Made by a program: the position numbers and the translations under genes
Shown: one piece after another, positions 16,578 to 48,821 of the stretch
How positions within the stretch are numbered: the stretch's first letter is position 1
Layout of the letters: the number at the start of each line of letters is the position of its first letter
Assembly (NCBI GenBank): GCA_902492325.1
Contig: CABULC010000004.1
Coordinates: 24,833 to 88,832, forward strand
DNA length: 64,000 bases
Reading direction: 5' to 3'
Origin: an uncultured Clostridium sp.
GTDB lineage: Bacteria > Bacillota_I > Bacilli_A > RF39 > UBA660
Notes under the pieces: model-generated
Told to the model about the DNA's origin: nothing
Database searches by the model: none
Seen by the model: only the letters and a program-made list of their open reading frames with translations

Positions 16578-16620
16578 ATTTAAATATATAAAAAAATAGA
16601 TTATATCTATAATCTATTTT
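16578..16620 (-). terminator. Rho-independent terminator of the prepilin-like gene, overlapping its stop codon
   Basis: Perfect palindrome aatagattata-tc-tataatctatt, followed by a U-run on the minus transcript. Confidence 0.55.
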
Positions 16621-21189: not shown

Positions 21190-24100
21190 TTAATTAGCTA
21201 CTAAATAATTACTATAAGCTTTAAAGTATGTATTAGATCTATAATTACTTATATAGTCAGTAGGAACATACATTTGTAATTGATATGAAGTATCAAATGT
21301 ATCAAATCCAGTCAACTTAGGTACATCTGTATAAAAGTAATAAGCTGATAAATTTGTACATCCATTAAATGCATAAGCACCAATACTTTCAAGTATATTA
21401 TTCATATATATAGTATTTATATTAGTTTGATTAGCAAATGCTCTATAACCAATTGTTTTAACAGTAGATGGTACTGTAAAAGTAATAGCTGTTTTTCCAT
21501 TTGGATATCTAATTAATGAACTAGCATCTTTATTATAAAGAACTCCTGAAGTACTTGAAAATGTTGCATTGTTAGCATCAACATTTATATTACTAATATT
21601 AGAGTTTCCATCTAAGAATCCCCCCGGAATATCATCTAAATATCTTGGAAGTTTTAATGTTGTTACATATCTATTTCCATCAAATGCATCAGCTGTAATA
21701 CTAGTAACATTATAACTTCTACCATTAACATCTAATGTATCAGGAATAGTTACAGAAGCTGAACTTCCTGTATAAGATGTTATCTTAATTTCATTGTTAT
21801 TATTAAGTATATATAAGAAATCAGATGAATATTGGGCGCTCGAATAATTATGATAACTCCAAGGTGTAGCATTTCTAAAGTCACTTAGTACACTAGATGG
21901 TACAGAATAAGTAAAGTGTGAATTATACCATAAACCTAAGAATCCTCTTTCATATCCTGGAAGTGCATTAGACGCAGTATTTGGAACACTATTTACTTGC
22001 ATACTTAATGTAGTTGTTGGTCCACCTTGATATGGGTTATATAAAGCATAATCATTAATATTTGTTGTACCAGTACCAAATTGAATATATGAAATAGAGC
22101 CACAACTATAAAGACAATAATCATCAGCTACCACTACACTATTAAATATTGCATTAGTTAATTTTTCACAATCAGCAAATGAATATTTACCAAGTCTTGT
22201 TATTTGGTTTCCAGTTACTCTTGTAACATCTGTTTGATAGAATGCATAATCATCAATAAGAACTACACTATTAGGAAGATTAACTACCCATGTTTGACCA
22301 GTAACAACCTCTACTCCATAATAAGCATAAGTACCAATTGATACAACATCATGTGTTATACCACCAGCAGTAATCTCATTTGGAATTTCAAATGATGAAG
22401 TAACATCAGGTCCATGATATTCAATAATTTCCCAACCAGTTACATCAGCATTCATCATATTTTTAAGTGTTACTTCACGTACACTATATTCTCCAATATC
22501 ATATGGAAGTGTACCAAATTTATAACTACCAATTATATATCCAGTTGGATAAATATAATCTTTAACATTAGATGGGAATGTATTCTTATATGCTTCTTGA
22601 TAAGTTACATTTGAAGTACCTATCTTACCATCTGGAACATATATTCTAAATCTCTTTCCAATTGTAGTACCTACATTATAGAATGCATTACTTCCTACAC
22701 CAATTTTCATACCACTTGCTTGTGTATCAGCATTAGTAGAAGTAAAGAACATTTGCTCCATTCCAGTACATCCATAGAAAGCACCTTCACCAATACTTGT
22801 AACAGGTCCGGCATTAACATAGTTAAGAGTTATATTATTAGCATAAGCATAATTACCAAGTTCTACAAGTTTAGGAGTTGTTGCTTTATAAAGTTTATTA
22901 TTAAATAATGCGTACTCACCAATGTAATCAACATTTGAAAGATTAAGTTCACGAACACCTTGTAAATTATAGAATGCATAGTTTCCAATATATCTTAAAT
23001 TTGTATTAACTATATCAAATGTACTACCAGAACTCATTGTTACCCATCTAAATGCTCTCTCACCTACACCAATTACTTCATAACTTTGACCATCAATAGC
23101 TAATGTAGTTGGTAACATATAAGTAGCATTTAAGTCAGCACCATGATATTCAACAATTTCTAATCCTTTAACACTTTGATTATCTTTTGTTATATATTCA
23201 CGACTTACAACACTATATTCACCAATATTATATGGAATATTTGTAGAACTATAAGTACCCATTATTGTTCCATAATCATAGAAATAATCTTTATATTCTT
23301 TTCTAAATGAATTAGCATATACATCAGTTAAATAATCAGTTGAAGTTGTAATTGTAGTTGTATAGTAAGTACCAGTTGAACCAGATAAATGACCATATAA
23401 GTTTGTCCAAGTGCTACTATTTGTTGTTCTAACTGTATAACTAAATGTTGTACTTGAACCATTAGTTAACGTACCATTACTAGAAGTATTATTAAATACT
23501 ATTCTAGAACTTGATGCTTCATATAAAGCATTAGTAGCAGTTTGAAGTGTAGTATTTCCAAGAGTAACAGATGTAGTCCATGCTTCTATATCATGTCCAG
23601 AATCATTTCTAACTGTTACAGTACATACATAAGTATATCTTCTACTAGTACCATTACCCCTTTGACTTCTAGAACAACTATCAGTAACATTGATATTTAC
23701 ATTATTTGGAGTTTTAACTTCAGTTGAAGTATTAGAAGAACCAACATAGAATCTAATTCTATTATTAGTAAGTGTTCCAACATCAGTAAATGCATATTGA
23801 TCAAATACTCTAGTTTCACTTCCTGGAGTAAAGAATACTTGTACTAAATTTGGAAGAGCATAAACAGCGTTTGTATCCATTTGATATACAGAACCTAAAT
23901 TAATTTTATAAAGTGTATTCATATTAGCAAGTGCATAAGAACCAATGCTTCTTAAATTAGGTGTTTCTAAATATACAAGGCCACCATTATTAAATGCATA
24001 ACTTCCTATATCAAGTAAACTAGTAGATGTAAATGATTTAATAGCTGTAATTCCTTCGAAACTATGATCTCCTAATTTCATAAGTTTATTATTAACTATA

Positions 24101-27100
24101 TCACTACCACCGCTACCATTAACAGTAGTATGTTTAAATGCATGATCACCTACAGCTATAACATCTTTAGTAACTCCTTTTATTGTATACGTAAGTGGAA
24201 TATTAAATGTATTAGATATATCTGCTCCATGATATTCAATAATTTCCCAACCATTAACATCTTGATTATTTCTATCTTTTATAGTTGTCTCTCTTACACT
24301 ATACTCACCAATATCATATGGAATTGGTGTATTGATAAATGAACCAACTATATATCCAGTTGGATAAATATAATCTTGATAATTACTAAATAATGCTTTA
24401 TAGAAATCAACTTTTCCTTCAGGTACATATATTCTAAGTCTATTATTAGCATTAGTACCAATATTATTCATCGCTGTACTATGAACTGACATGTTATCAG
24501 TATTAGTAGTACCTATAAATATTTGTTCTAAGTTAGGGTTATTACTAATAGCATTCTCTCCCATTACTTGAATATTACCAAGGTTAACACTATATAAAGT
24601 ATCCATATCCGACATAGCATATTTACCCATAGAATTTAAATTTGGAAGGTCTACTGTTTGAAGACCAGTATTATATAAACTATAGTCTCCAATAGAAATT
24701 AAACTCTCTGAAGTAAGTGATTTAACTTTAATATTTTCAAGACCATGATTATCTATATTTATTAAATTATTCGCAAGTAAATCAATAGTTTGATTTGATG
24801 ATGAAGCAGTATGTCTATATGCATACTCGCCTACTGAAATTATATTCATTAAAGGACTAGTCGAAGAATATACACTCAAGATACCAATACTTAAACTTTG
24901 AGAAGACATATCATAATAGAATGACAATTGTTTACTTTCTCCAGGAGCAATAGTTCCATTATAATCTTTACTTGTTAAGATTAATAAGTTACCATTTACA
25001 CTTTCATTAGCTCCAGTATAAGTAGAACCCCATGTAACACCCGTTGGAAGATTTATTCTAACAGTCCAATCATTTATAGTAGCTGTTGTATTATTTGTAA
25101 TTGTTAAGTTACCACCAAATCTGTATCCACTACCATTTTGCCATGAGTTACCAGTTATAGATGCAGATAATCCTTCGTCAGATACTATAACATCTGGTAT
25201 TTGATAACTACTAGTTAAATCAGCTCCATGATATTCAATAATTTCATAAGCAGTTACATCTTCGCCCTGAGCATTCTTTTTAGTAACACCACGTACACTA
25301 TATTCACCCCAATCATATGGAATAGCTACGTGTTTATAACTACCAATTATTGTTCCTTTAGGATATACAAATGATTCATTAGCAGCAAATATCTTCTTAT
25401 ACCCTTGTAAATAATCAAATCCTTCAGCATCTGTTCCTGATGGAACATACACTCTAAGTCTACCATCTAAGTACATTCCCCAATTTGTAAATACAGCATC
25501 TTCACCAACAGTTAAATCAATACTTTTACCATTATTTACAACCTTAGTAGAAATATTACTAAACCAAACTCTACCAAGTTGAGGACAATTATAAAATGCT
25601 TTATCACCTATTACTTTAACAGTTCCAAGGTCCATCTCATAAAGAGTTGTACTATTCATAAACGCATATGACATTATTTCATCAACATTAGGAAGACTAA
25701 TATAAGTTATTGGATTTTGATAGAAACCATAAGAACCAATATATTCAAGTTTATTAGAAACAAGTGTAGTTAACTTTGTATCATAAAATGCATATGAATT
25801 TATTTTACTAACTTCACCTAAATTTATTTCAGTTATATTATCTTTATAGAATGCATATGAATCAATTAATGACACAGTATTTGGAATAGTTATCTTAGTA
25901 CCAGTAGCAGCTGTATTTAAATTCCTATATGAATTATATCCAAGTGCAGTAACAGGTTTAGTAACAGATGATTTAGTTATATTATTTGGAATAGTAATAC
26001 TAGAACCAACTGATACACTATTTATAAAGTATGAAATTCCATATCCTTCACCATAATCATAAACAAAATATTGTTTATTATCAGATAATTCTCCGTGATA
26101 ATATACATATGCTTCATTAATATTTTTAGTATTTCTAAATGTTTCAATTGCTCCTTGACTTACAAAGAACTTAGTACCATTAGAACTATCATTAAATGTA
26201 TTACTTCCAATAGTTGGAGGAATTTGTCCTCCAAACTTAACATATCTTGCATTAGCAAATGCTCCATCACCTATATTAGTTACAGTAGATGGAATTGATA
26301 AGAATGTAAATGCTCTAGAAGTAGATATACGGCCTAGGTTAACATTAGCAAATGCATTAGAACCAATAGTTGTTAATGTTTTAGGAAGAATTAATGTCTT
26401 AATACTTGTCTTATCTTTTAAAGTATTATTAGCTATTTTATTAATTGTTGTTCCATCGCTAACAGTAGCATTCGCAAGTCCTAAATATTCTATAGAATGC
26501 ATTTCATCACTAGCTATATAAGTAAAATCTTCATTTTCAAAATAAGCACTATTTAATGTATATATTATTAATTTCTTAATATTATAAATATTTTCAGTAG
26601 TAGTTGTAGGATCAATATCATCAAAGTATGCTTTTAATAGCTTTTCTAATGATTCGTTATTATCACGAATATAAACATAATATGAATTTTCTTCACCTTG
26701 AATTGGTATTACAGAATCTTCAGGAGCACCCTGATTGATATCATCTCCAGTAAAGTTATCAGATCCGCCAACTGTAATATTGTTAGATGAAACTCCTCTT
26801 ATAATTAATGTATTACCAGTGTTAGGACCAGTATATGGTGTTGAGTTAGATGGAAGCATAATAGAAGGTCCATTTAATACCCCAAGAATTGTATTTAAGT
26901 TGTATACATATATTTGATATTTAGAGAATGAATCAATAAGTTTCATGTTTTGAAGTTGTATTTGAGTAATAGTACCATTATTAAGAATCTCAATGTTAGT
27001 TGAACCATCTGCTCCTATTACATAACCTACTTCTACATTAGGTGCAATAGTTAAACGAGTATTTGATTCAACAATTATATCAACAGGTATATTACCTACT

Positions 27101-28530
27101 TTATTTTTAACAATTCTAACAGCTTCTAATAAAACACCATCTTCCTCTTCATTTTGAATACCATTAACAGTAAATTCTTTACCAACAAATATATCATAAT
27201 CTTGATTTAAACCAACAATATGTATTTGACTCTTTGGAGTATTTATATATAAATTTCCATCAACATCTATTTTTCCACCAGAGGAAGTATCAATGTTAAG
27301 TTTACCCATCTCAACGAAATCATAAACTAAGTCTCCAGTAAAATGTAAGTTGTATCCAGCAGTATCTAAATGTACTCTACGTTGAAAATCAACACTACCA
27401 TCAATCTTAATATCATCAGCAAGCTTAATTGTATCTCCACTAAGAGCATTAAGTGCAGCATCTCTAAATTGACTTTCATTTTCTACTAACCAAATTTGTC
27501 CTTCATTAGCAAGGCTAACATCTATTCCTCTTTGAGTACAATACACGTTCGCATGAACACTTACTGAAGCTCCACTATATAATGACGAATTAACATTTTG
27601 ATACATACCATAATCTATTCTAAAGTATCTATAATTATTTTCATCATCATCTTTATCTTTATCTATTTCACCTTTAATAATTATTTGAGGTATTGTAGTT
27701 AAATTTGATACTGGGTTTAATGCATCAGTTTCAAGATTATCAGGTGTTGGATTTGAAGCAGCATATGCTTTTAACTTAGTATCATTAGTAGCAGTAACTG
27801 TACTTGAAAGTACTTCATCAGTAATATCTATAACTCTATAATATAGTACTCCTGCATTAGACATTGTTCCATCTAACGTAAATGATAAGTTATAATCTAT
27901 ATTTAATGAACCAGTATTTTTAATCTCAATATATCTTGTATTCTTAAATGTATTACTTAAATCTGTTTCACGTACTACAGTAACGGTGTCACCTTCAGTA
28001 CCAATTAAAACACCAGATTTATCATATTGATTAACTATATGTTCTACAGTACCTAATTTAATTTCAGTACCTTTACTAACATATTCATTATAAAACCAAC
28101 TATAAGCATCATATATTAAGAAAACACTAAGTATGACAAGTACAAATGATTTAGCCATAATTCTAGGAGTCATATATTTAGAATATTCACTTCTGTAACC
28201 GTCTATTCTCTCTTTATTTTTAGTTTTAGCTAAACTCAAGTACTCTTTAAATTCACTATAATATTCTTTTGCATATCTCTTAAACTTTTTACAATATAGT
28301 ACTATATAAAGTCTAATCTTTTTTAAGAATCTTAAATTATAAATTGAATCAATAAATCTATATAGATAAACAGATACTACTATTACACCAAGTATTTCAT
28401 AATAGTAAAACTTTCTTAATTTCTTTCTAATTTTTTTATAACATCTTTTAAATCTTTTTTTAGCAACATGAAAGAAATCAATTAAATAATTGATTAATGC
28501 ATTATAAATTTTATTAATGCTTTCTTTCAT
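21190..28530 (-). CDS. Giant (2446 aa) surface protein. It has a Lys/Arg-rich N-terminal region, a TM or signal segment ending in a SipW-type AYSWF motif, multiple BspA-type leucine-rich repeat blocks and four ~230-aa internal modules.
   Basis: A strong RBS aaggagtagatATG sits at the first ATG. AKSFVLVILSVFLIYDAYSWFYNE resembles SipW-cognate signals. LRR_5-like stretches include IGSNAFANV... and IGDKAFYNCPQL... The module IPY(D/N)(W/I)GEYSV...EI(I/V)EYHG(A/P)D recurs four times. There is no LPXTG motif. Confidence 0.7.
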   Translation of the reverse strand: MKESINKIYNALINYLIDFFHVAKKRFKRCYKKIRKKLRKFYYYEILGVIVVSVYLYRFIDSIYNLRFLKKIRLYIVLYCKKFKRYAKEYYSEFKEYLSLAKTKNKERIDGYRSEYSKYMTPRIMAKSFVLVILSVFLIYDAYSWFYNEYVSKGTEIKLGTVEHIVNQYDKSGVLIGTEGDTVTVVRETDLSNTFKNTRYIEIKNTGSLNIDYNLSFTLDGTMSNAGVLYYRVIDITDEVLSSTVTATNDTKLKAYAASNPTPDNLETDALNPVSNLTTIPQIIIKGEIDKDKDDDENNYRYFRIDYGMYQNVNSSLYSGASVSVHANVYCTQRGIDVSLANEGQIWLVENESQFRDAALNALSGDTIKLADDIKIDGSVDFQRRVHLDTAGYNLHFTGDLVYDFVEMGKLNIDTSSGGKIDVDGNLYINTPKSQIHIVGLNQDYDIFVGKEFTVNGIQNEEEDGVLLEAVRIVKNKVGNIPVDIIVESNTRLTIAPNVEVGYVIGADGSTNIEILNNGTITQIQLQNMKLIDSFSKYQIYVYNLNTILGVLNGPSIMLPSNSTPYTGPNTGNTLIIRGVSSNNITVGGSDNFTGDDINQGAPEDSVIPIQGEENSYYVYIRDNNESLEKLLKAYFDDIDPTTTTENIYNIKKLIIYTLNSAYFENEDFTYIASDEMHSIEYLGLANATVSDGTTINKIANNTLKDKTSIKTLILPKTLTTIGSNAFANVNLGRISTSRAFTFLSIPSTVTNIGDGAFANARYVKFGGQIPPTIGSNTFNDSSNGTKFFVSQGAIETFRNTKNINEAYVYYHGELSDNKQYFVYDYGEGYGISYFINSVSVGSSITIPNNITKSSVTKPVTALGYNSYRNLNTAATGTKITIPNTVSLIDSYAFYKDNITEINLGEVSKINSYAFYDTKLTTLVSNKLEYIGSYGFYQNPITYISLPNVDEIMSYAFMNSTTLYEMDLGTVKVIGDKAFYNCPQLGRVWFSNISTKVVNNGKSIDLTVGEDAVFTNWGMYLDGRLRVYVPSGTDAEGFDYLQGYKKIFAANESFVYPKGTIIGSYKHVAIPYDWGEYSVRGVTKKNAQGEDVTAYEIIEYHGADLTSSYQIPDVIVSDEGLSASITGNSWQNGSGYRFGGNLTITNNTTATINDWTVRINLPTGVTWGSTYTGANESVNGNLLILTSKDYNGTIAPGESKQLSFYYDMSSQSLSIGILSVYSSTSPLMNIISVGEYAYRHTASSSNQTIDLLANNLINIDNHGLENIKVKSLTSESLISIGDYSLYNTGLQTVDLPNLNSMGKYAMSDMDTLYSVNLGNIQVMGENAISNNPNLEQIFIGTTNTDNMSVHSTAMNNIGTNANNRLRIYVPEGKVDFYKALFSNYQDYIYPTGYIVGSFINTPIPYDIGEYSVRETTIKDRNNQDVNGWEIIEYHGADISNTFNIPLTYTIKGVTKDVIAVGDHAFKHTTVNGSGGSDIVNNKLMKLGDHSFEGITAIKSFTSTSLLDIGSYAFNNGGLVYLETPNLRSIGSYALANMNTLYKINLGSVYQMDTNAVYALPNLVQVFFTPGSETRVFDQYAFTDVGTLTNNRIRFYVGSSNTSTEVKTPNNVNINVTDSCSRSQRGNGTSRRYTYVCTVTVRNDSGHDIEAWTTSVTLGNTTLQTATNALYEASSSRIVFNNTSSNGTLTNGSSTTFSYTVRTTNSSTWTNLYGHLSGSTGTYYTTTITTSTDYLTDVYANSFRKEYKDYFYDYGTIMGTYSSTNIPYNIGEYSVVSREYITKDNQSVKGLEIVEYHGADLNATYMLPTTLAIDGQSYEVIGVGERAFRWVTMSSGSTFDIVNTNLRYIGNYAFYNLQGVRELNLSNVDYIGEYALFNNKLYKATTPKLVELGNYAYANNITLNYVNAGPVTSIGEGAFYGCTGMEQMFFTSTNADTQASGMKIGVGSNAFYNVGTTIGKRFRIYVPDGKIGTSNVTYQEAYKNTFPSNVKDYIYPTGYIIGSYKFGTLPYDIGEYSVREVTLKNMMNADVTGWEIIEYHGPDVTSSFEIPNEITAGGITHDVVSIGTYAYYGVEVVTGQTWVVNLPNSVVLIDDYAFYQTDVTRVTGNQITRLGKYSFADCEKLTNAIFNSVVVADDYCLYSCGSISYIQFGTGTTNINDYALYNPYQGGPTTTLSMQVNSVPNTASNALPGYERGFLGLWYNSHFTYSVPSSVLSDFRNATPWSYHNYSSAQYSSDFLYILNNNNEIKITSYTGSSASVTIPDTLDVNGRSYNVTSITADAFDGNRYVTTLKLPRYLDDIPGGFLDGNSNISNINVDANNATFSSTSGVLYNKDASSLIRYPNGKTAITFTVPSTVKTIGYRAFANQTNINTIYMNNILESIGAYAFNGCTNLSAYYFYTDVPKLTGFDTFDTSYQLQMYVPTDYISNYRSNTYFKAYSNYLVAN
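22000..26200 (-). repeat. Four diverged ~0.7-1.1 kb intragenic repeat modules within the giant gene (approximate bounds)
   Basis: Recurring protein module ...IPYD.GEYSVR..T.K......V.G.EIIEYHGAD..... flanked by LRR blocks. Confidence 0.45.
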
Positions 28531-28539
28531 ATCTACTCC

Positions 28540-29082
28540 TTATTGATTTTTTATTTTTTTAACATCCTTTACTATATCTTTTATTTCAAAGAAATATATA
28601 AGTCCTAAAGGTATAATTATTATAAGTATAAATCCTAATTTAGTATCCATTATTCTTTCTATAATACTAAATAAGAAAAATTTATATATGTATTTTCCAA
28701 GCATTTGTTCTTCATAAACCGCTGGGTCATTTGACACATTTTTAATACCTTTAGTATAAAATATTCTTCTATTGTTTTCTTTTGAAATTCCAACTATTTC
28801 GTGAGTAACTATTTTACCTTTTAAGTCTCCATCCATTCCTCTAAAAGTAACTATATCTCCAACTTTATAGTCAGATATTTTTTGTTTTTTTATAAGTATT
28901 ACATCACCTTTTTTTAGTTTAGGATACATACTATTAGTTATTATTGAGTAAGTTCTAAATCCAAAAACACTTGGATTATTTGGCACTACTTTTTGATAAG
29001 CAGTTGCTATTACAAATAGTACAAGTAAGATAAGTAATATTATTTTAATAACATCTAATATTTTAAGTAATACTTTTTTCAT
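28540..29082 (-). CDS. sipW: Signal peptidase I, archaeal/ER-type (SipW-like), paralog 1
   Basis: N-terminal TM, box B TNSMYPKLKKGDVILI, box D IVTHEIVGI. Confidence 0.75.
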   Translation of the reverse strand: MKKVLLKILDVIKIILLILLVLFVIATAYQKVVPNNPSVFGFRTYSIITNSMYPKLKKGDVILIKKQKISDYKVGDIVTFRGMDGDLKGKIVTHEIVGISKENNRRIFYTKGIKNVSNDPAVYEEQMLGKYIYKFFLFSIIERIMDTKLGFILIIIIPLGLIYFFEIKDIVKDVKKIKNQ

Positions 29083-29093: not shown

Positions 29094-29669
29094 CTATGGT
29101 TTAATAAACATTATTTTGTTAACTTTTAGTGATGTTCCCTGTAATGCATTTGGAGCATCTATATCTATTTCTAAATTCCAATAATAATTTAATGTTGAGT
29201 TCGCAGGAATTGTAACACTTTTAGCAAAATCGAAGAAATATCTATCATCCTCTTCATTATGTTCAAGTCTATCATTAAGCATAAATGAGAATGTTTCAGG
29301 GTTAGTAGCACTTATTTTTAAATAATTCTTCATAAAATTTATATTACCTGTTATTTCAGTAAATACAATCTTAACTTTAGCAGCTACCTTATTTTTATTA
29401 GTTAATTCAAACCTATATCTTTGTATTTTTCCTGGATACATTTCATCAAGAGTAATAAGTGCATCAGCACTTTGTTGTCCTTGAAGAACATAAGTATTAT
29501 TAACAAGAGCATAAAGTTTAACATCTATATCACTATCAGTTATATAAAAGTCACGATTATATTCAATGTTTTCGCCTAAAGATGGTTCTGTTTGCATCCA
29601 TCCATAAGCTATTCCTATTAATAAAGCAATTATTAGAATATTTAATATTATTGATATATTCTTTTTCAT
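29094..29669 (-). CDS. TasA/camelysin-like SipW-dependent secreted protein (small paralog, family 1)
   Basis: Likely ATG start at MKKNISII (RBS GGGGG); the track's upstream start is a TTG. Signal ends IAYGWMQTE. C-terminal motif is shared with the neighbouring paralogs. Confidence 0.5.
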   Translation of the reverse strand: MKKNISIILNILIIALLIGIAYGWMQTEPSLGENIEYNRDFYITDSDIDVKLYALVNNTYVLQGQQSADALITLDEMYPGKIQRYRFELTNKNKVAAKVKIVFTEITGNINFMKNYLKISATNPETFSFMLNDRLEHNEEDDRYFFDFAKSVTIPANSTLNYYWNLEIDIDAPNALQGTSLKVNKIMFIKP

Positions 29670-29670
29670 A

Positions 29671-30723
29671 TTAACCCCCAAATGTTACCAGTGTTGCATA
29701 ACTTTCTGGAGATACACCAACCACTTCAGCAATTCTAACATATACACTTTGATATCCTGTAAATTGTTGATTTGGATCAGTTACCTTAGTCCATACAGTA
29801 TTTTGATCATTAGTAGTTGCCCATTCCATTGTAGTATCAAGTCCAGTAATTGTATAGTTAGTATTTCCAGTTAATGAAGGAGCCGCTAATAATTCATTCG
29901 CACTACCAAACTTAAATAATACATTTATTATTGTAGAAGCAAGAGCATTAGTACAATCAACATCTCCCCCTTCTAACCATATCTTAAGATTAACTTGCAT
30001 TCTAGAGTTTTTAGGAATAGTAAACAGCACTTTATTAAGATCAATATTATCACTATCACTAGAACTTCTTCCACCATCTTTAAAACTAAAATTACGAACT
30101 AATTGGTTAGTAGAATATTCACTAGGTACATTACCAAAAGTAAATTTTCCAGTTTTAATTATAGCCTTAGTTGTATACGGATCAGTTATACCATTTTCAG
30201 GTGTTTTACCAAATATCACTGTCGCAGTTGAACTACTTGAAGTTGGATAAGTAATTGCTATTCTAAGAGCATCCCACGCAGGACCAGTAACTTTAGTATC
30301 CCTATGTATATATACATGTTTTGGATAGTCTTCAGTTTGTAAATAAAAATTAAAATCAACGTAACCATTCTCTATCATTTGAGATACACTTCCATCAGAC
30401 TTAGGAAGTAAAATAAATTCTGGATCAGTCAATGATAAACCTTCATTAAAATCAATTGTATAAAAGTTAGCAGCATCTACACTAGATACTTGTTTTAACT
30501 CAAATTCATCAAAATTATCTAACATATTATTTAAATTAACAACACTTCTAGCAGCAGAATCTGGTTGAAGTTTTATAACCAATCCTTCAGCAGCACTAAC
30601 CTGAATATTAGATAAGTTTATTTGAGGATTTGATCTATCTTGAAACCATGCATATGAAGTCATAAATAATATAACAGTAAATCCAACAAGTAATATTATT
30701 TTTACTATTATTTTCTTATTCAT
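29671..30723 (-). CDS. TasA/camelysin-like SipW-dependent secreted protein (family 1)
   Basis: Signal peptide ending SYAWFQD (matches the B. subtilis TasA GTWAAFND logic). C-terminal motif NLKIWLEGGDVDC. Confidence 0.5.
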   Translation of the reverse strand: MNKKIIVKIILLVGFTVILFMTSYAWFQDRSNPQINLSNIQVSAAEGLVIKLQPDSAARSVVNLNNMLDNFDEFELKQVSSVDAANFYTIDFNEGLSLTDPEFILLPKSDGSVSQMIENGYVDFNFYLQTEDYPKHVYIHRDTKVTGPAWDALRIAITYPTSSSSTATVIFGKTPENGITDPYTTKAIIKTGKFTFGNVPSEYSTNQLVRNFSFKDGGRSSSDSDNIDLNKVLFTIPKNSRMQVNLKIWLEGGDVDCTNALASTIINVLFKFGSANELLAAPSLTGNTNYTITGLDTTMEWATTNDQNTVWTKVTDPNQQFTGYQSVYVRIAEVVGVSPESYATLVTFGG

Positions 30724-31892
30724 TAATTTTCACCCCCAAACTTAACAATTACTGCTTTAGATGCTAATAACTCATCTGTTTCTTTATATCTAACATATAC
30801 AGTAGAATTCTTATCAAATGTTACAATATTTTTATATTCAATGTATGTAAGACCATTATCAGTTGAATACTCCATGTGTTCATTTATACCATCTATAGTT
30901 TTACTAACATCATCAGCTTTAACATTTGGAACATTGGTGTTTTCCTCTTTAGTAATACCTACAAAAGATAAATTTATTTTAAATATTCCACCTTTTAAAG
31001 CAGAAACAGCATCTCTATCATTTCCTTCTACCCATACTCTAACTTTAAGTCCAGCTTTTTTCTCTAGCCCATCTTCTGTATCTATAGATACAAGTACTGG
31101 ATCTCCATTAGCCATTTTGGTATCATATGAAGCGCTTATATCATCTTTTAAATTATCTAAATCTTCTTCACGAAAAGTATTTGAATCTTCAACTTTAATA
31201 TATTTATAACTTTGACTATTAGTTGATTCAACATCAGCTGTAAACCAACCATCATTTTCAATTATTTCATATGTTTTATTTGGAGCCCAAATTAGAACTG
31301 GTTTATCTTCAAGTTCAAAACTATTAGTTTCCTCATTAAAATTATATCTTATAAATGCGACTCTAACAGCCCCAGCTATTAAGTCTCTACTAAAGTCTCC
31401 ATAAGCACTAGCTCTAACAATATCATCTATCTTTTTATCACTACCTGGAGTTAATACCAAGTCTTCTTTTTTAGTACCACACTCTGGAGTAACACTAGAA
31501 TCTTCTTCTAAAAATAATTTAACAGAAGAATCATTCTTAAACCAAACATCAAATTCTAAATAATCTTCATTAAGAGTAGCATTAGTAAAACTTAAAGGAG
31601 TTCCATACTCATCTTTTAAATTAGCTTTATAGAAATTAATACCATCACTAGTTACTTCATTATTAAATCTAAATCCTTCACCAACATCAATATTAAATGA
31701 GTCTCCCCAACCTTGATTTCCATCTTCAGAAATCATAATATTATTTGTTTTAGCAGTACCAATATTAACTCCTTCTACATTACTATCACTTTCATGAACA
31801 AACCAAGCATAAGAAAAAACAAATATAGATACAATTATAGCTATAAGTTTAAACATTGTAACATAAATATTTTTACTTGCTTCCTTATTCAT
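30723..31892 (-). CDS. TasA/camelysin-like SipW-dependent secreted protein (family 1)
   Basis: Signal peptide ending SYAWFVHE. C-terminal motif VRVWVEGNDRDA. Confidence 0.5.
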   Translation of the reverse strand: MNKEASKNIYVTMFKLIAIIVSIFVFSYAWFVHESDSNVEGVNIGTAKTNNIMISEDGNQGWGDSFNIDVGEGFRFNNEVTSDGINFYKANLKDEYGTPLSFTNATLNEDYLEFDVWFKNDSSVKLFLEEDSSVTPECGTKKEDLVLTPGSDKKIDDIVRASAYGDFSRDLIAGAVRVAFIRYNFNEETNSFELEDKPVLIWAPNKTYEIIENDGWFTADVESTNSQSYKYIKVEDSNTFREEDLDNLKDDISASYDTKMANGDPVLVSIDTEDGLEKKAGLKVRVWVEGNDRDAVSALKGGIFKINLSFVGITKEENTNVPNVKADDVSKTIDGINEHMEYSTDNGLTYIEYKNIVTFDKNSTVYVRYKETDELLASKAVIVKFGGEN

Positions 31893-31895: not shown

Positions 31896-33008
31896 CTACC
31901 TCAAATATGCAAATGCATCTTGTTTATTCTTTCTATATCCTTTAAGAAGTCCTTTAAACTTCTTAATAATCTCTTTGTCTGTTTTTAACTCTTTTTCATG
32001 AGCTAATTTAAACTCTTCAGTAAGAATCTTTTTGAATTCCTTTTCAGAATATTTTCGATTATTAATCATAAAGTCAGCAATCAACTTGCGAAGAGCATAT
32101 CTATTAATTTTATCTTCTTTAAATGTTTTATTAGAATCGCTCTCATTAAGTATTACATAATCTAAGAAGAATGCCATGTCCATTCTATTTTTAGTTTTTT
32201 CATCATCTACTTTTTCATGAGAATCATTAACTTCCTTCTTATCTTTAACATCATATTGCTCTATAAATTCCCATAATTCTAATGCTTTTTGAAAGTTTGG
32301 ATTTTTAAGAATAGTATTTGTCTTTCTAATTGGAGATTTTACTGGAGCAGCACTTGCAAGTTCTTTAACAAATGGTGTTTTTAAAAAGTCAGCAACTACT
32401 AACTCAATCTTAGCAAGTCTTTGTTCAACACTCTCTCCACTTGATGAAGTACCACTTAAATCTTCAAATGAATTAGTTTCCATATTTAAAGTTATATTTA
32501 CTTCATCTTTTCCTAACTTAGTTTTACCATTATAAGTCATTATTCTCTTTTTCTTAGCATAACTTCCACTCGCAGTAGCTTCTTTTCTAAGTTTAAAGAA
32601 ATAATTAAGGTTATTTAATAATGATATTACAAATCTATTCTCATAAATATCAAAGCTTTCTTCCTTGTTTACATTAAGTACTTTACTAGGAGTAATTGTT
32701 CCATCTTCACTAACATCTTGTATTAAATCAGTATGTTGTGCTAAATGTTTTATAGTTTCTTGACTAATCTTTTTAGCTTTTTCTACTGGAACTATTTCTT
32801 CTTCTTGCATTATGAATCTTTTAGGGTTTCTAATGATATTATCAAGATAAATAAGAGTTTCTTCTATTTTATCTATCCATGAGTAATCATACTCTACACT
32901 TTGAAAAGATGAATTAACAACAACTTTAGATTCATTAGAACCAACAAATTGTTGCATAGCTAAATTATCTGTATCATCTAATAAATTTAATAATTCGTTT
33001 TTATTCAT
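31896..33008 (-). CDS. Hypothetical cytoplasmic protein in the McrC position downstream of the McrB-like GTPase. No nuclease motif is evident, and the C-terminus is K/E-rich.
   Basis: Tightly coupled to the upstream AAA+ gene (13-nt gap). No PD-(D/E)xK motif recognisable by eye. Confidence 0.4.
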   Translation of the reverse strand: MNKNELLNLLDDTDNLAMQQFVGSNESKVVVNSSFQSVEYDYSWIDKIEETLIYLDNIIRNPKRFIMQEEEIVPVEKAKKISQETIKHLAQHTDLIQDVSEDGTITPSKVLNVNKEESFDIYENRFVISLLNNLNYFFKLRKEATASGSYAKKKRIMTYNGKTKLGKDEVNITLNMETNSFEDLSGTSSSGESVEQRLAKIELVVADFLKTPFVKELASAAPVKSPIRKTNTILKNPNFQKALELWEFIEQYDVKDKKEVNDSHEKVDDEKTKNRMDMAFFLDYVILNESDSNKTFKEDKINRYALRKLIADFMINNRKYSEKEFKKILTEEFKLAHEKELKTDKEIIKKFKGLLKGYRKNKQDAFAYLR

Positions 33009-33021
33009 CTTTTATTCCTTT

Positions 33022-34623
33022 CTACATTGCTTTCTTAAGTCTAGCTAAATATTCTTTACATTCACTCATATTTTCTTTTCCAAATGTTTTATCTAAGAAT
33101 TTAACATATCCATCTATCTCATCACGAATGAATGATAAGTTTAATTGTTCAAACTTTCTAAGTACTTTTTTACAAAGTATATAATCAAATCCATCTAACT
33201 CAGTACCACCACATGCTACATATACTGGAATGAATTCTTTAATATGTTTTACGATACGGTTTCCAAAGGCTAGTCTGAAATGTTCAATAACATAATTGTC
33301 CATATCTTCTAACTTATTAAGTGTATCTTGACTAACTGCATGTTCTTGCTTAGCTTTAGTAAATAAGCTTTCTAAGTAACTACTATTAATTCTAATACCT
33401 TCTGTATCAGGTGCATCAAATGGTTGACCTTTATCATTAATATCTATAGGCATCGCACGGTCGTATACCTTATCTGTTACCATAAATGTTGAATCATCAT
33501 TATTGATTGTACCAATGTACCACATGTTATCTGGTATCTTAAGTTTACCATCAGGTAAATGTTTAGGATCGTTTGGCCATACATTTGGTACCAAATCTAT
33601 TACCCATTCATCACGAGAAGGCATTTCTAATATAGATAGCATTTCTGCGAAATAGTATTCAACACGAGCTATATTCATTTCATCTAGTATTGTTAAATAC
33701 ATTTCATCATTATAACTTGCTTCATACATAGCTTTTAATACTTCTGTTTCGTTAAACTTTTTAGTAAACTCGTTGAAGTAACCAAATAGCTCTGTTCTAT
33801 CTCTCCATGAAGGTTGAACTGAAGCAATAGTTGCATCTCTACTAATAAATTTTCCCCAAGCATATGGAAGTGATGTTTTACCAGTACCAGAGATACCTTG
33901 TAAAATTACAAGTCTTGTTGCTCCAAGAGCTGCTACAAACAAACGAATAATTTTAACTTTATAATATAGTTTCATACGACTAGCAGCAAAGTTTCTAAAA
34001 GTATCACATAATTCTTCAAGTGTGAATGTATTACCAAAGTTTTCTGGTTCTTTATTTGCATACTCTTCATCAATTTGAGTTAACTTGAAGAAACGACTTC
34101 CATTAGCCGCTTCAGGTATAGCTTCAGCTGGAGTCTCTTCACCTTCACCAGTTTCACCTTCAGTAGTAGTACTTTCACTAGTACTCTTAATATCACTAGG
34201 TAAATCTACATTCAAAGCACTCTCTTGAGGTTTAAGACCAATTTGTGAAACTTTCAAAGCATATAATTCTTCTTTTTCTTGATTAAGTCTTATAACATCT
34301 CTATCAAGTTTAGCCACTTCTTCTAATAAACTTTCTTGCTCAACTAAAGTTTTCTTAAACTTAAATATTTTTCTAATTAACAAAAATACCAAATATATAA
34401 TTCCAAGTAAGAATGCAAGTATAAGTAATACTGCTAAACCTACTAATATCCATTGACCAACTGAAAATTCTCCAGAATATTCTTTTAATATTTTCAAATA
34501 TGCTTTAAAGTTAAACATCTTAATAATGCCTTTAAAAAATCCCATAAAAATATTTATTATTCCGGAAAAGAATTGTTCAAATAAATCATATAAAAATCTA
34601 ATATATGTTGACAATTCTTCCAC
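33022..34623 (-). CDS. Membrane-anchored McrB-family AAA+ GTPase (AAA_5), with N-terminal TM helices and a coiled coil
   Basis: Walker A VILQGISGTGKTS. Walker B region YLTILDEMNIARVEYYFAEMLSILE (compare McrB IDEINRAN). McrB signature WYIGTINNDDSTFMVTDKVYDRAM (compare IIGTMNTADRS...D.ALRRRF). Two hydrophobic helices occupy the first ~100 aa. The start codon is ambiguous: GTG at 34623 or TTG ~9 nt downstream, after RBS agaggtgg. Confidence 0.65.
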   Translation of the reverse strand: MEELSTYIRFLYDLFEQFFSGIINIFMGFFKGIIKMFNFKAYLKILKEYSGEFSVGQWILVGLAVLLILAFLLGIIYLVFLLIRKIFKFKKTLVEQESLLEEVAKLDRDVIRLNQEKEELYALKVSQIGLKPQESALNVDLPSDIKSTSESTTTEGETGEGEETPAEAIPEAANGSRFFKLTQIDEEYANKEPENFGNTFTLEELCDTFRNFAASRMKLYYKVKIIRLFVAALGATRLVILQGISGTGKTSLPYAWGKFISRDATIASVQPSWRDRTELFGYFNEFTKKFNETEVLKAMYEASYNDEMYLTILDEMNIARVEYYFAEMLSILEMPSRDEWVIDLVPNVWPNDPKHLPDGKLKIPDNMWYIGTINNDDSTFMVTDKVYDRAMPIDINDKGQPFDAPDTEGIRINSSYLESLFTKAKQEHAVSQDTLNKLEDMDNYVIEHFRLAFGNRIVKHIKEFIPVYVACGGTELDGFDYILCKKVLRKFEQLNLSFIRDEIDGYVKFLDKTFGKENMSECKEYLARLKKAM

Positions 34624-34697: not shown

Positions 34698-34730
34698 TAT
34701 CAAAATAAAAAAGCTATTCAATGAATAGCA
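34698..34730 (-). terminator. Rho-independent terminator after sipW paralog 2
   Basis: Inverted repeat gctattca-a-tgaatagc, followed by UUUUUUAUUUUG on the minus transcript. Confidence 0.5.
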
Positions 34731-34748: not shown

Positions 34749-35303
34749 TCATTTAACTTTCTTATAATCTAGTAACAACATTATAAATTTATATAATTGA
34801 TATATAAAGAATGCTGCTAAAGGTAAAATGATACATACAAAGAATCCAACTTTAGCTTTTAAGAATGTTAGGATTGAACCTAAAACCGGTAATCTTGTTC
34901 CATTCCATACAGAGATAATATCTCCAGGAGCAACTTGTTGTGGATCTTCTCCAGTATTAGCATCACCTTGAGTAACATAAGATGTCATACCATTTACTGT
35001 AAGTACTGATTTAATTCTGTGTGTTTTAATTATTTTAGTATTTTCTTCCATTGCGAAGAATGCAATAACATCCCCCTCTTTTAATACAGTTTTTCCATCA
35101 TAACTCTTAGTAACAATTAAGTCACCAGTCTTAATAACAGGTTCCATTGATCCTGTTTGAATATTTAGAGGGATGTATCCAAATATTTTAGAAACTCCTT
35201 TTTCACGAGAAGTTAATGTAATCAAAGTTACACTAGCTGCTAAAATAATAACAACCCAAATTATTATATCTAAAATAACTTTTAAAATCTTTTTTCCTTT
35301 CAT
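34749..35303 (-). CDS. sipW: Signal peptidase I, archaeal/ER-type (SipW-like), paralog 2
   Basis: Box B TGSMEPVIKTGDLIV, box D IIKTHRIKSV, N-terminal TM. Confidence 0.8.
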   Translation of the reverse strand: MKGKKILKVILDIIIWVVIILAASVTLITLTSREKGVSKIFGYIPLNIQTGSMEPVIKTGDLIVTKSYDGKTVLKEGDVIAFFAMEENTKIIKTHRIKSVLTVNGMTSYVTQGDANTGEDPQQVAPGDIISVWNGTRLPVLGSILTFLKAKVGFFVCIILPLAAFFIYQLYKFIMLLLDYKKVK

Positions 35304-35321: not shown

Positions 35322-36446
35322 CTATACACCAGCATTTTTAGATATTTGAATGTTGAAAGTAATATTAGAACCAGAAGCATTATTTTCACAGTCATAATCT
35401 TGTCCTTCAACCCATCCATATATTCTAACCTTATTAATACCAGCAGCTAAGTTAAATAATGTTTTATATTCTCCATTAGCAGTATTTCCATTTGGAGTTT
35501 GAATATCAGGAGTTACTTGATCAAAATATGTAGTAACTTTTGATTGATAGTCTACTGCAGGATTTGCAGCAATAGCAGCTTTAATACCATAGTAATTAGG
35601 TACAACTGTAGTCGTATCATATGTAGTTTCACCATAGTTGTTTGCTTGTGCTACACCAGCAGCTGTGTGTATATTTGAGTTTGGTTCCCAGAACATATTA
35701 GTAGCACCACCAGCACTATGACTAGCAGCACCTTTTAATGCAATAGCATCTGCACTAGCACCTGTAGCAGCACTACCTTCATAAAGGAATGCAACTCTAG
35801 CGGCATTCTTAAGTCCAGTATCAGCAGCAGTAGCTACAACATCTGATGAAGTTGTTAAATATACTGTAGTAGCTTGTGTAGTTAATAAGAATAAATCAAA
35901 TGCAATAAAGTCACCTGTAGTACCTGCTTTTTCAATAGATTGTTCTGCAACTAATCTATAACCATGAGCAGTAGTAGCATCAGCTTCAATACTACCTTTA
36001 TACATTTTCATAAATCCTGTAGTAGCATCTACATCACCTATAGTAGATACAGGAACAATTTGATTTGGTAATTGGTTTGTATTACCAGCATAAGCATTAG
36101 CAGTAATATCATTAGTTGAAATATTTGCTTTCCAGTTAACAGCATCTACAGAAACTTGGATACCATTAGCAGCACTAACATTTACATCAATGCTATCAAC
36201 AGTAACAGTTGTATTTTCAGTGAACCATGCATAAGATGCAGTAGTTAAAGAAATAGCAGTAACTATCAACATAAGGAATGCAGTAAGAATCTTTTTACTA
36301 TTATTATTTGATTCTTCATGATTTTCTTTTACAACATTGTTTTCAACAACATTAGTTGCTTGTGGTTGAGCAGGAGTATTATTAACAACTGCTTGATCAA
36401 CAGGTGTTGTTTGAACATTGTTTTTTACATTGTTTTCATTTTCCAT
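35322..36446 (-). CDS. TasA/camelysin-like SipW-dependent protein (family 1) with a ~50-aa N-terminal cytoplasmic extension
   Basis: TM ILTAFLMLIVTAISLTTASYAWFTEN. C-terminal motif VRIYGWVEGQDYDC. Confidence 0.5.
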   Translation of the reverse strand: MENENNVKNNVQTTPVDQAVVNNTPAQPQATNVVENNVVKENHEESNNNSKKILTAFLMLIVTAISLTTASYAWFTENTTVTVDSIDVNVSAANGIQVSVDAVNWKANISTNDITANAYAGNTNQLPNQIVPVSTIGDVDATTGFMKMYKGSIEADATTAHGYRLVAEQSIEKAGTTGDFIAFDLFLLTTQATTVYLTTSSDVVATAADTGLKNAARVAFLYEGSAATGASADAIALKGAASHSAGGATNMFWEPNSNIHTAAGVAQANNYGETTYDTTTVVPNYYGIKAAIAANPAVDYQSKVTTYFDQVTPDIQTPNGNTANGEYKTLFNLAAGINKVRIYGWVEGQDYDCENNASGSNITFNIQISKNAGV

Positions 36447-36461: not shown

Positions 36462-37151
36462 TTAATCAGTTTTTTCAGTAATTATCATAGACATTTTCAT
36501 TTCCCCTCCAATGATATCATCGATACATTCAGGGTCTTTACCTTCAAGCCAAACAATTACAGTGTACCTGTCTATTTCACCAGGTTTAATGTTATTTCTA
36601 TCTTGTTGCATTATTAAATGATTTGATAAAAACGATATTGTATTTGGTTCAGCTTTGCCATCTTTAGACTTTTTAGCATAAACCTTTTTTTCGCCATTAG
36701 TATAAAGAGCAACTCTAACAGCCTCATCAACATTCTTTATAACAGATTCTATAACAATCTTAGATTTATAACTAACATTCTCTTTTCCATCATTTTTTAC
36801 AAAGAACGTATATGCGATATAGTTATCTTCACTATGATCACCTTCTTTTGATATTAAACTATCAAAAGGAATCCACCCTTCAGTAATGTTATCCATATAC
36901 TCTAAACCTTTTACTTTGATTTCAACAGTTTCCGCAGAAAACTCTGAATCAGAAGATAAAAGTATATGTCTTTCAGACTTTAAATTTTTATCTAGTTTAA
37001 TTGTAAAATAACCATTGCTATTCACAACATATAATATTAAATATAATATTGAGAAAAACAGTAATAAAACTAATAAAGCCATTTTTACAATTCTAGTAAA
37101 TAATTTTCGTCTATAAACTTTTTCAGCAGTTACTTTAACAATATTATCCAT
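36462..37151 (-). CDS. Family-1 paralog with an uncleavable-looking N-terminal anchor (possible TapA-like anchoring or accessory protein)
   Basis: TM LLVLLLFFSILYLILYVV lacks the A-W-F motif. The C-terminus shares the family motif VIVWLEGKDPEC. Confidence 0.4.
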   Translation of the reverse strand: MDNIVKVTAEKVYRRKLFTRIVKMALLVLLLFFSILYLILYVVNSNGYFTIKLDKNLKSERHILLSSDSEFSAETVEIKVKGLEYMDNITEGWIPFDSLISKEGDHSEDNYIAYTFFVKNDGKENVSYKSKIVIESVIKNVDEAVRVALYTNGEKKVYAKKSKDGKAEPNTISFLSNHLIMQQDRNNIKPGEIDRYTVIVWLEGKDPECIDDIIGGEMKMSMIITEKTD

Positions 37152-37159: not shown

Positions 37160-38281
37160 CTACTTATACATTTTATAAGTTCCATTATCATATTCTTCTA
37201 CAATTGTGGCATTAATACTTCTAGAAAAATTGATAATACTTTCATAATTAGTAACTTCGCCAGGCTTTAAAAATAAATAATTTACAAGACCTTTAAGTTT
37301 AATAGATTTTTGCTCTAGAGTATTTAAATGATAAACGCCAATCATAACACCAGCATTCTTCAGCTCTTTTACTTTAATATCTCTAGAAATTAGTTCACTA
37401 TATGGTACTAAAAATACAAAATGATTTAGAGTTTTAGGCTCAATAATATTAAGCATCTTAGTAACATTAGTTCTAAGTCTAAAAAATCCATTCGGAAGTT
37501 TTATAAAATATAATGTATTCTTTTTATCAGAGAAAACATCTTTAACTATTTGAAAACTTACATTTTCAGCTTCAATATACTTAAAATCTATCGCAAATTC
37601 ATATTTAATAAATGCATCATATACATGACTAGAATCAATACCACTAAATTCTTCTTTATCAAAATGAATTCTTGACATATAGTAATTAATACCATTTAAA
37701 TTACCAACAATGTCATAATAAACTTTCAAAGGTGATTTCGATAATTCTCTTAAACACTTTTTATAATTTTTACTTTCTTTAGTAATATTTTTAATTATTT
37801 TAATATAATTTTCATCAAATAATTCTTTTACTTCAGAATCAAAAAGTGACTTATTCTTAACTTCAAACATCTTTATGATTTCTTCATAACTGTATTTATC
37901 TTTAGTTAATGAATTAGAATATTCTTCTAAAGCAATATTTAAAAGAATAAGTTTAGCTACTAAATAATACCAATTGAATAACTTTTTATTATCAATCAAA
38001 TCTAAGTAATCAACTACATTTTCAAAAATAAGTAAAAGCATTCTTTTTGGTACAATACTAACTACACCATATTTTTCAAATATTTCTGTATATTCTTCTA
38101 GAGCTTTATCTATGTTTCTATTTCCAAAAAAGAAGTCTTGATAGAATTTATCTATACATATTTCAAAGTCTTCTATATTTTTTGGATATGGAACAATCTC
38201 ATCACGAATAAGTATATCTACGTTTTTAAGAATGCATTTAGCTTTTTGTTTTAAAAAAACATCTGCTATGCACCTCATCAT
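37160..38281 (-). CDS. Cytoplasmic hypothetical protein at the head of the fibre operon
   Basis: ORF with no signal peptide and no motif recognised. Confidence 0.4.
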   Translation of the reverse strand: MMRCIADVFLKQKAKCILKNVDILIRDEIVPYPKNIEDFEICIDKFYQDFFFGNRNIDKALEEYTEIFEKYGVVSIVPKRMLLLIFENVVDYLDLIDNKKLFNWYYLVAKLILLNIALEEYSNSLTKDKYSYEEIIKMFEVKNKSLFDSEVKELFDENYIKIIKNITKESKNYKKCLRELSKSPLKVYYDIVGNLNGINYYMSRIHFDKEEFSGIDSSHVYDAFIKYEFAIDFKYIEAENVSFQIVKDVFSDKKNTLYFIKLPNGFFRLRTNVTKMLNIIEPKTLNHFVFLVPYSELISRDIKVKELKNAGVMIGVYHLNTLEQKSIKLKGLVNYLFLKPGEVTNYESIINFSRSINATIVEEYDNGTYKMYK

Positions 38282-45866: not shown

Positions 45867-46567
45867 TTAATTTTCTTGTATAAGAATAAAGTTATAACCA
45901 ATAATATACCAATTATTACACCACTAGCAATATACCAGCCACTTATTCCACTTCCAACTTTATCTTTACTAATTGCAAAATAAATATTATTGTCTTCTTG
46001 ATCAATAGTCCAAGTAGCAGTATCTCCATTTACATTTTTCGAATTCGTATTTAATAACTTATCTTTTGCTTCAATTTTAAATTGCATACCTTCTACATAT
46101 CTACATGTATAATATCCAGATAAGCTATAATAATATGCTTCATCATCATCTCTTATATATTTAATACTAAAGCAATTATTAAATATATTATTATTTTTAA
46201 ATTCATCATATTTATATTTATAGGTATACTCATATATAAAGTCATTATTATTTTGTGTTAATTTTCCATTGTATTTATAAGTATCCATATTAGCAAAACT
46301 ATTTATTTTGTTTTCATCAAATAATTTTTCAGAACCAGTTTTTACTTGATAACTAGTATATGTTCTACTAACATTAAATTCTTCATCAGTATCATTTACA
46401 TATTTTGTATATTCATTTGCATTGTATTTTATTGTTATTTTTGAATCAATACCATCTTCTCCAAAGTTATAATATATTTCACTAGTACAACCCGTACACA
46501 AAATAATAACGAATACTAATAAAAATAATTCTTTAAATTTAAGCAATTTTGTAACTTGCATATCCAT
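45863..46567 (-). CDS. Lipoprotein with an additional C-terminal TM
   Basis: Lipobox ILCTGCTS. C-terminal GWYIASGVIIGILLVITLFLY. The start is probably MQVTK. Confidence 0.5.
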   Translation of the reverse strand: MDMQVTKLLKFKELFLLVFVIILCTGCTSEIYYNFGEDGIDSKITIKYNANEYTKYVNDTDEEFNVSRTYTSYQVKTGSEKLFDENKINSFANMDTYKYNGKLTQNNNDFIYEYTYKYKYDEFKNNNIFNNCFSIKYIRDDDEAYYYSLSGYYTCRYVEGMQFKIEAKDKLLNTNSKNVNGDTATWTIDQEDNNIYFAISKDKVGSGISGWYIASGVIIGILLVITLFLYKKIN

Positions 46568-47492: not shown

Positions 47493-47504
47493 TTAATACA
47501 CCCC

Positions 47505-48125: not shown

Positions 48126-48131
48126 ACTCCA

Positions 48132-48692: not shown

Positions 48693-48767
48693 AATCTCGT
48701 CACCATACTATATATATAATAACAAAAAACGTACTAGTTTACAAGAAATAATACTAACATAAACTTT

Positions 48768-48803
48768 TATTTACAAATAAAAAAAGTAGTAATTAAACTA
48801 CTT
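48768..48803 (-). terminator. Strong rho-independent terminator directly after the candidate major subunit gene
   Basis: agtagt-aattaa-actact followed by UUUUUUUAUUUG on the minus transcript. Confidence 0.55.
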
Positions 48804-48821
48804 ATTTTATCCTAAATTAAA

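Follow-up and report, generated by a model that had tools for sequence, protein, structure and literature searches.

How does a gene pair related to the McrBC restriction enzyme come to reside in a cluster of genes for putative fibre subunits and a giant adhesin? This question is raised by a 64,000-nucleotide stretch of DNA (hereafter the window) from an uncultured Clostridium sp. (assembly GCA_902492325.1, contig CABULC010000004.1), wherein positions 31896 to 34623 carry the gene for an McrB-like AAA+ GTPase and, directly after it, the gene for an McrC-like partner. We consider it likely that the two proteins form a GTPase module that derives from McrBC, retains neither the DNA-reading domain nor the nuclease, and serves the SipW-dependent biogenesis of fibres and an adhesin rather than restriction. 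This proposal builds on the family identities and catalytic motifs of the proteins, on the absence of a nuclease, and on tight synteny.

The McrB-like gene (33022-34623, minus strand) is listed as encoding 533 amino acids, and a preliminary description of the locus, prepared from the sequence alone, had assigned its product to the McrB family. Homologue alignments and profile searches support the same assignment, with a similarity far above chance. The expected motifs are present (GISGTGKT at residues 243-250, ILDEMNIAR at 312-320 and WYIGTINNDDST...DRA at 368-390) and are invariant in 16 diverse homologues. They conform to the Walker A (GxxGxGK[ST]) and Walker B (hhhhDE; ILDEMN, residues 312-317) patterns, and the 16-homologue alignment reveals K249, D314/E315, N374-N375-D376-D377 and R389 as catalytic residues that are invariant throughout the family. 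A profile made from these homologues matches the solved structure of E. coli McrB (6hz4_A) with an E value of 7.1e-6 over 206 positions, which span the whole AAA+ core. The NCBIfam model for McrB matches at 5.8e-5, with 22 bits against an equivalog cut-off of 637, and therefore the protein cannot be counted among the orthologues of E. coli McrB. Among Pfam models nothing scores above threshold, the only match being AAA_5 at an E value of 0.042. The PADLOC candidate PDC-M26A matches the GTPase region at 2.8e-37; membership in this candidate system was rejected because the match is restricted to the GTPase core, an unrelated CoCoNuT-like protein from Deinococcus scores similarly, and the partner has no PADLOC match.

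Within the McrB family, we place the protein in the NxD branch as defined by Bell et al. (2024, eLife, PMC11090510), because its signature GTINNDDST aligns column for column with GTANHDETT and GTANQDETT of CoCoNuT-like GTPases, and because a C-terminal helical domain is common to both groups. The same signature aligns with GLMNTADRS of E. coli McrB, relative to which the window protein reads N-N-D-D and has an IG-IDI stretch that is one residue shorter, at a deletion site that cannot be fixed exactly. The aligned fragment of E. coli McrB does not cover the C-terminal helical domain.

The most distinctive part of the McrB-like protein is its N-terminus, where the DNA-binding or modification-reading domain of McrB is absent and a membrane anchor with a coiled coil is found instead. 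The protein opens with a conserved segment of about 57 residues, which is followed by a transmembrane (TM) segment at residues 58-83. A region rich in K/R, a short coiled coil and a linker of acidic character then lead to the GTPase domain at approximately residues 215-420, and the C-terminal helical domain completes the chain. The listed full-length homologues measure approximately 505-557 amino acids, and the N-terminal 135 residues are conserved in every one of them. Of the two TM helices and a coiled coil that had been described previously, one helix is well supported, as the segment at residues 58-83 is strongly hydrophobic (mean hydropathy of about 3) in 16 of 16 homologues, and the coiled coil corresponds to a short conserved stretch at about residues 92-125 with a heptad pattern recognized by eye. 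The other proposed helix is insecure, given that residues 18-37 are amphipathic, with a mean hydropathy of 1.5 and a high hydrophobic moment. Five K/R residues occur among the 17 that follow the TM segment, and therefore the coiled coil and the GTPase domain are predicted to be cytoplasmic. A library-wide search with the N-terminal 135 residues uncovered no fusion of this anchor to other domains, and returned solely N-terminal matches within its own family, many of which are short proteins that are probably gene fragments. The true start of the gene is likely a TTG codon at 34614 that is preceded by GAGGTGG, which would give a protein of 530 amino acids, the form that homologues also have.

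The McrC-like partner (31896-33008, minus strand; 370 amino acids) follows after a gap of 13 nucleotides and carries the McrC N-terminal domain (Pfam DUF2357, 1.5e-13). The best structural matches of its predicted model are solved McrC structures. As the preliminary description had suspected, no PD-(D/E)xK nuclease can be recognized in this protein by Pfam, by conserved residues or by fold. Residues E247 and E250 are conserved but lie in a helix, and there is no conserved ExK or D...(D/E)xK arrangement. This architecture is general, since all 1166 detected partner homologues carry DUF2357 as their only domain, and the full-length ones are of about 370 residues. The C-terminal region is helical, and the predicted structure ends in a helix of 48 residues (322-369). 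Residues 62-125 are the most conserved of the protein, yet they are modelled with low confidence, as would be expected of a segment that folds against a partner. Longer orthologues of 677-828 amino acids are found in metagenome-assembled genomes (MAGs) of Clostridia, at L046 (11577-13685), L048 (5313-7778), L069 (1606-3834), L073 (11613-13646) and L080 (11559-14045), and their additional 300-450 residues form K/E-rich repeats of the coiled-coil type and include no nuclease. We also observed two metagenomic proteins of 456 amino acids (P0192 and P0193) that combine RmuC (PF02646) with DUF2357 and cover 55% of the partner at 76% identity, and these represent either a gene fusion or an artefact of assembly or gene calling.

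To what process do these two proteins belong? A scan of loci, for which one genome per species was used, found a relative in at least 586 species, most of them represented by MAGs of uncultured gut Bacilli, ‘Tenericutes’ or Mycoplasmatota, with some Clostridia, and the best 80 of these species-level loci were examined in detail. At all 80 the McrC-like partner adjoins the McrB-like gene, and 79 of them have a SipW homologue no more than 10 kb away. In every case the pair is embedded in a co-directional block that is composed of SipW genes and genes for proteins, small to large, whose N-terminus carries a TM segment. Thus, the co-occurrence with SipW and secreted-protein genes that the preliminary description had proposed to examine is borne out across these loci. 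SipW and proteins with the signal motif described below flank the pair on both sides in two recurrent arrangements. The arrangement of the window is shared by approximately 10 of the 80 loci, including examples from Clostridia. In the more common arrangement, the genes for SipW, a 200-residue family, a 310-residue family and a 330-residue cytoplasmic family precede McrB and McrC, after which come SipW, the 200-residue family, p229, T374 and a protein of 1600-2000 residues. Median gaps are 8 nucleotides upstream of the McrB-like gene, 14 between it and the McrC-like gene, and 3 downstream, such that junctions typically measure less than 15 nucleotides. The pair had been described as the head of its operon, which agrees with the window-type arrangement, whereas most genomes carry it in the middle of an operon. 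The McrB-like gene is also the best-conserved member of the cluster, with a median identity of about 60% compared with 32-40% for its neighbours. In loci with the common arrangement (L006-L080), we additionally note that a gene for a member of the 200-residue family with the YAKY motif (approximately 190-225 residues), the second gene after the McrC-like one, consistently runs against the direction of the rest of the cluster, which is otherwise co-directional.

No full-length homologue of the McrB-like protein was found among 72,556 plasmids, 50,697 phage records and IMG/VR, where matches are limited to the GTPase domain at no more than 40% identity. Two relatives with the GTPase domain only, at 28-31% identity, are present in a human faecal phage contig (MT835511.1, 40037-41155) and in an IMG/VR sequence (L081, 10001-10489), and these are probably CoCoNuT-like defence genes that fall outside the McrB-like family discussed here. 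No defence genes are evident among the scanned proteins of the window, in which the neighbours are surface-protein and housekeeping genes. The searches did not direct the GTPase to another AAA+ clade, nor reveal a classical McrC nuclease in the partner, nor confine the orthologues to defence islands.

Known SipW substrates such as TasA carry a signal junction of the form aromatic-Ala-aromatic-Phe. Two genes encode SipW-type signal peptidases I of the archaeal/ER type. Copy b (34749-35303, minus strand) matches Pfam S26, NCBIfam TIGR02228 at 2e-24 (above the cut-off) and the SipW model at 6e-29 (below its equivalog cut-off), and copy a (28540-29082, minus strand) matches TIGR02228 at 6.4e-27. 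The cognate-SipW model of NCBIfam gave no match at an E value of 0.01 or below in a scan with the full library. Three proteins, T374 (35322-36446), T389 (30723-31892) and T350 (29671-30723), all encoded on the minus strand, form one family and carry SYAWF. T374, the putative major fibre subunit, is composed of an N-terminal tail, a TM segment, this motif and a predicted beta-sandwich. T389 and T350 are secreted and resemble the subunit, and T389 ends in a DUF4073 domain. Related to them (hhalign 98.2%) is p229 (36462-37151, minus strand), a signal-anchored and beta-rich protein without Y-A-W-F that is represented in 45 of the 80 loci. Across the subunit family, Y-A-W-F or Y-S-W-F follows the N-terminal TM segment in 69 of 87 members, and motifs of this class resemble the junction of TasA. 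Variants are Y-A-K-Y in the 200-residue family and Y-G-W-M in T195, a small secreted protein (29094-29681, minus strand; AYGWM). The evidence supports the view that proteins of the T374/T389/T350 type are SipW substrates and probable fibre subunits.

The 2446-residue surface adhesin (21190-28530, minus strand) fits the same scheme. Its N-terminal portion (27931-28530) comprises a basic, predicted cytoplasmic tail of about 125 residues, a TM helix and then AYSWF. This motif is of the same class as in the subunits and thereby points to cleavage by SipW and to an adhesin that is built into the fibre or attached to it. The remainder includes BspA-type leucine-rich repeats and a carbohydrate-binding module (Pfam LRR_5 at 2.7e-91 and CBM_2 at 2.7e-11).

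Three of the secreted proteins had been termed TasA-like, and the SipW-type signal motif and the adjacent sipW genes are in keeping with this designation. Neither T374, T389, T350, T195 nor p229 matches Pfam PF12389 (Peptidase_M73, camelysin/TasA) or solved TasA, even at an E value of 10, and searches of Pfam, NCBIfam and PDB sequences assigned these five proteins and the 200-residue family to no usable family. Foldseek comparison of the T374 model with the PDB returned nothing at an E value below 0.06. One member of the 200-residue family from a related locus gives a weak camelysin match (3.9e-3). We regard the description of the subunits as TasA-like as plausible but tentative.

A further component, which had not been flagged previously, precedes the secreted proteins in the window. 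This protein, p373 (37160-38281, minus strand), is predicted to be cytoplasmic, has no Pfam or PDB match, and has a fold without a match. By hhalign (89%) it is related to the 330-residue cytoplasmic family of the common arrangement, whose gene immediately precedes the McrB-like one in 65 of 80 loci. The p373 family is thus probably a third core component of the module. A degenerate EAL (c-di-GMP) domain was considered for the C-terminus of p373 and its relatives and was dropped, since no member matches EAL at an E value of 1 or below and the PDB gives no match.

All genes of the cluster lie on the minus strand in the transcription order p373, p229, T374, SipW copy b, McrB-like, McrC-like, T389, T350, T195, SipW copy a and adhesin. 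From the McrB-like gene through the adhesin gene, every junction is overlapping or no longer than 13 nucleotides, and SipW copy b is separated from the McrB-like gene by a spacer of 125 nucleotides. This spacer contains a hairpin followed by a T-run (34713-34729, minus strand) with a folding energy of −12.8 kcal/mol and a z score of −3.25, whose position after copy b is retained in window-like loci (L001-L004, L048 and L080). The terminator that had been reported between the pair and this sipW gene is thus supported, and the hairpin is likely a terminator or attenuator. The candidate promoter that had been reported ahead of the pair (34681-34652) carries no statistical weight, with 73 matches compared with 82.5 expected in shuffled sequences, and a consensus match is uninformative because the DNA is AT-rich.

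Elsewhere in the window there is a second SipW-type cluster without McrBC genes (46539-49388, minus strand), which includes a third SipW paralogue (47505-48125), a 188-residue open reading frame (ORF; 48822-49388) that is unrelated to the subunits above, carries TFAWF and matches camelysin weakly (Pfam M73, E value 4.6e-4), a 186-residue ORF with YAYY, and a 317-residue ORF with weak matches to Peptidase_C39-like and T4SS-pilin models. Two further genes (10793-12415 and 16614-18185, minus strand) encode a protein with a sortase domain and one that resembles type IV pilins, with an N-terminal methylation motif and DUF285 repeats. As judged from these predicted products, the region specifies several independent surface-structure systems.

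Contrary to what had been thought, the arrangement has been described before. In an extensive clade of NxD GTPases, Bell et al. (PMC11090510) report a fusion to an FtsB-like domain with a TM segment and a coiled coil. They give the name CoCoPALM to systems in which the McrB and the McrC homologue each have coiled coils and which are associated with a signal peptidase family. Their account occupies three sentences and is deferred to a future paper, and their supplementary files provide no CoCoPALM details. On the features predicted from its sequences, the window system is a member of this named but uncharacterized class. Three of the four published features are evident, namely the NxD GTPase, the signal peptidase association and a coiled coil on the McrC homologue. 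With regard to the fourth, an anchor formed by the TM segment and heptad stretch is present, its similarity to FtsB/DivIC is sub-threshold, and the topology predicted for it is opposite to that of FtsB. To the published description, the current analysis adds the p373-family component, the Y-A-W-F signal class, an adhesin with the same motif, the single secure TM segment and its topology, and the existence of divergent branches without a recognizable SipW.

Comparison with better-known systems helps to define what has been retained and what has been replaced. The McrBC complexes of E. coli and Thermococcus gammatolerans (6hz4, 6ut5, 6ut6) share the AAA+ core, the Asn/Asp signature and the B-then-C gene order, whereas here a membrane anchor takes the place of the DNA-binding domain, no PD-(D/E)xK nuclease is present, and the context is secretion rather than restriction. 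The closest outside relatives of the GTPase domain, at 36-40% identity, and of the C-terminal domain are of the CoCoNuT type (CnuB/CnuC with helicase and HEPN), specifically coiled-coil GTPases that adjoin large DUF2357 proteins on plasmids of Deinococcus and cyanobacteria. Shared features are the N-x-D-[E/D] motif, the presence of coiled coils, and a partner with DUF2357 in which an active nuclease is often missing. However, the GTPases of CoCoNuT systems are soluble and begin with coiled coils of several hundred residues (the Deinococcus core starts near residue 470), and they occur with nucleases and helicases on plasmids, whereas the GTPase described here has a membrane anchor and resides in a nuclease-free operon with SipW and fibre genes. 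The tapA-sipW-tasA operon of Bacillus subtilis likewise encodes a SipW-type peptidase together with its substrates, but the subunits described here are larger (195-389 amino acids) and do not match Pfam Peptidase_M73, a 2446-residue adhesin is included, and there are two SipW copies. A functional analogy only can be drawn with the ATPases of type IV pili and archaella, where a cytoplasmic hexameric nucleoside triphosphatase (NTPase) is likewise encoded with membrane-anchored prepilins and a prepilin peptidase; PilB/FlaI ATPases are unrelated to the AAA+ domain of McrB, and the peptidase class and signal type differ as well.

From knowledge of the families and from synteny, we infer how such a module might operate. 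The McrB-like protein would form a hexameric GTPase ring that is tethered beneath the cytoplasmic membrane through one TM helix and a short coiled-coil stalk in the cytoplasm. In the McrBC complexes of E. coli and T. gammatolerans, McrC plugs the McrB ring and stimulates its GTPase. The McrC-like protein would do the same via DUF2357, and its helical or coiled-coil C-terminus, which replaces the nuclease, could serve with the p373-family protein as an adaptor or scaffold. Conformational changes powered by GTP on the cytoplasmic side of the membrane might then act on the signal-anchors of the giant adhesin and of the fibre subunits, and in this way control whether, or in which order, these proteins are passed to the two SipW peptidases and polymerize outside the cell. 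A loose analogy is the NTPase that drives the assembly of type IV pili from the cytoplasm. More ambitious is the proposal that the p373-family protein, the tethered McrB-like GTPase and the nuclease-less McrC constitute the cytoplasmic engine of a new NTP-dependent pathway for SipW fibres and giant adhesins, a new class of pilus biogenesis that arose by exaptation of a restriction enzyme and is widespread in uncultured gut Bacilli and Clostridia. We advance this version tentatively, and rate its chances at somewhat below even.

The same components can be read in other ways. The preliminary description had raised, next to a role in fibre export or assembly, the possibility of a membrane-associated defence module, which might be either a sensor derived from McrBC or CoCoNuT systems at the base of a pilus that serves as a phage receptor, or an ancient defence insertion, in each case with an unidentified effector. 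Such a module would be in keeping with the proximity of the GTPase domain to predicted defence GTPases of the CoCoNuT type, with the PDC-M26A match, and with the fact that CoCoNuTs include McrC homologues that lack a nuclease (PMC11090510). However, the loss of the nuclease from CoCoNuT McrC proteins is always offset by an adjacent nuclease (PMC11090510), and at this pair there is none; no nuclease, HEPN domain or other effector is found in the two proteins or adjoining them. The invariant synteny with secretion genes in 80 species, the high sequence conservation, and the lack of full-length plasmid or phage homologues also speak against defence, which we consider highly improbable, and of the two earlier options the fibre role is the better one. 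We also regard as unlikely, on balance, that the pair acts as a cytoskeleton-like device, in which an FtsB/DivIC-like anchor and the coiled coils of McrC place or time fibre production at the septum or pole, or couple it to a signal, with GTP as a switch. Bell et al. (PMC11090510) call the anchor domain FtsB-like, residues 68-120 give weak matches to FtsL_2 (E value 0.048) and DivIC (0.3), the coiled coils of McrC orthologues extend to about 450 residues, and in one divergent locus (L084) the start of the dcw cluster, with mraZ, rsmH, a DivIC-like gene and a penicillin-binding protein gene, lies just ahead of the trio. However, these matches are far below Pfam thresholds and are of the kind that any TM segment with a coiled coil would produce, the K/R cluster after the TM segment predicts a cytoplasmic coiled coil whereas that of FtsB is, by established topology, extracytoplasmic, and neither the window nor the 80 loci have division genes close to the pair.

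Several observations also weigh against a dedicated role of the GTPase module in SipW-dependent biogenesis. To our knowledge, TasA fibre assembly in Bacillus needs no NTPase, and thus a motor is not an obvious requirement. Threading of substrates through the ring is unlikely because McrC occupies the McrB pore in known complexes. Similarity of the subunit proteins to TasA or camelysin is marginal at most, the synteny counts refer to the best 80 of at least 586 loci, and CoCoPALM is a named class for which no follow-up or experiment was found in the literature to mid-2026. Two divergent loci, L084 (7412-18407) and L086 (7344-14280), whose McrB-like proteins are 50-53% identical, retain the trio of p373-like (hhalign 97.8-97.9% to the 330-residue family), McrB-like and McrC-like genes, followed by genes for proteins of 419-554 residues with a long cytoplasmic N-terminal domain and a TM segment. 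Their neighbours include no recognizable SipW of the archaeal type and no Y-A-W-F; L084 has only an S26 peptidase of the bacterial type near the trio, and L086 has none. Although it is very strong in the clade that contains the window, the link between the module and SipW fibres may therefore be a trait of that clade and not inherent to the family as a whole. Because these loci keep the trio without a recognizable SipW, we take the p373-like, McrB-like and McrC-like proteins to be the invariant core.

If the GTPase does drive or gate assembly, then the module would clearly exemplify the recruitment of a restriction-enzyme motor to the biogenesis of the cell surface, and it would provide the first NTPase-dependent route for fibres of the TasA or SipW type. 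The three-protein core, the common signal motif and the invariant catalytic residues offer concrete targets for mutagenesis and for the modelling of complexes. Such a role would also explain how abundant, uncultured gut Firmicutes with small genomes display their adhesins.

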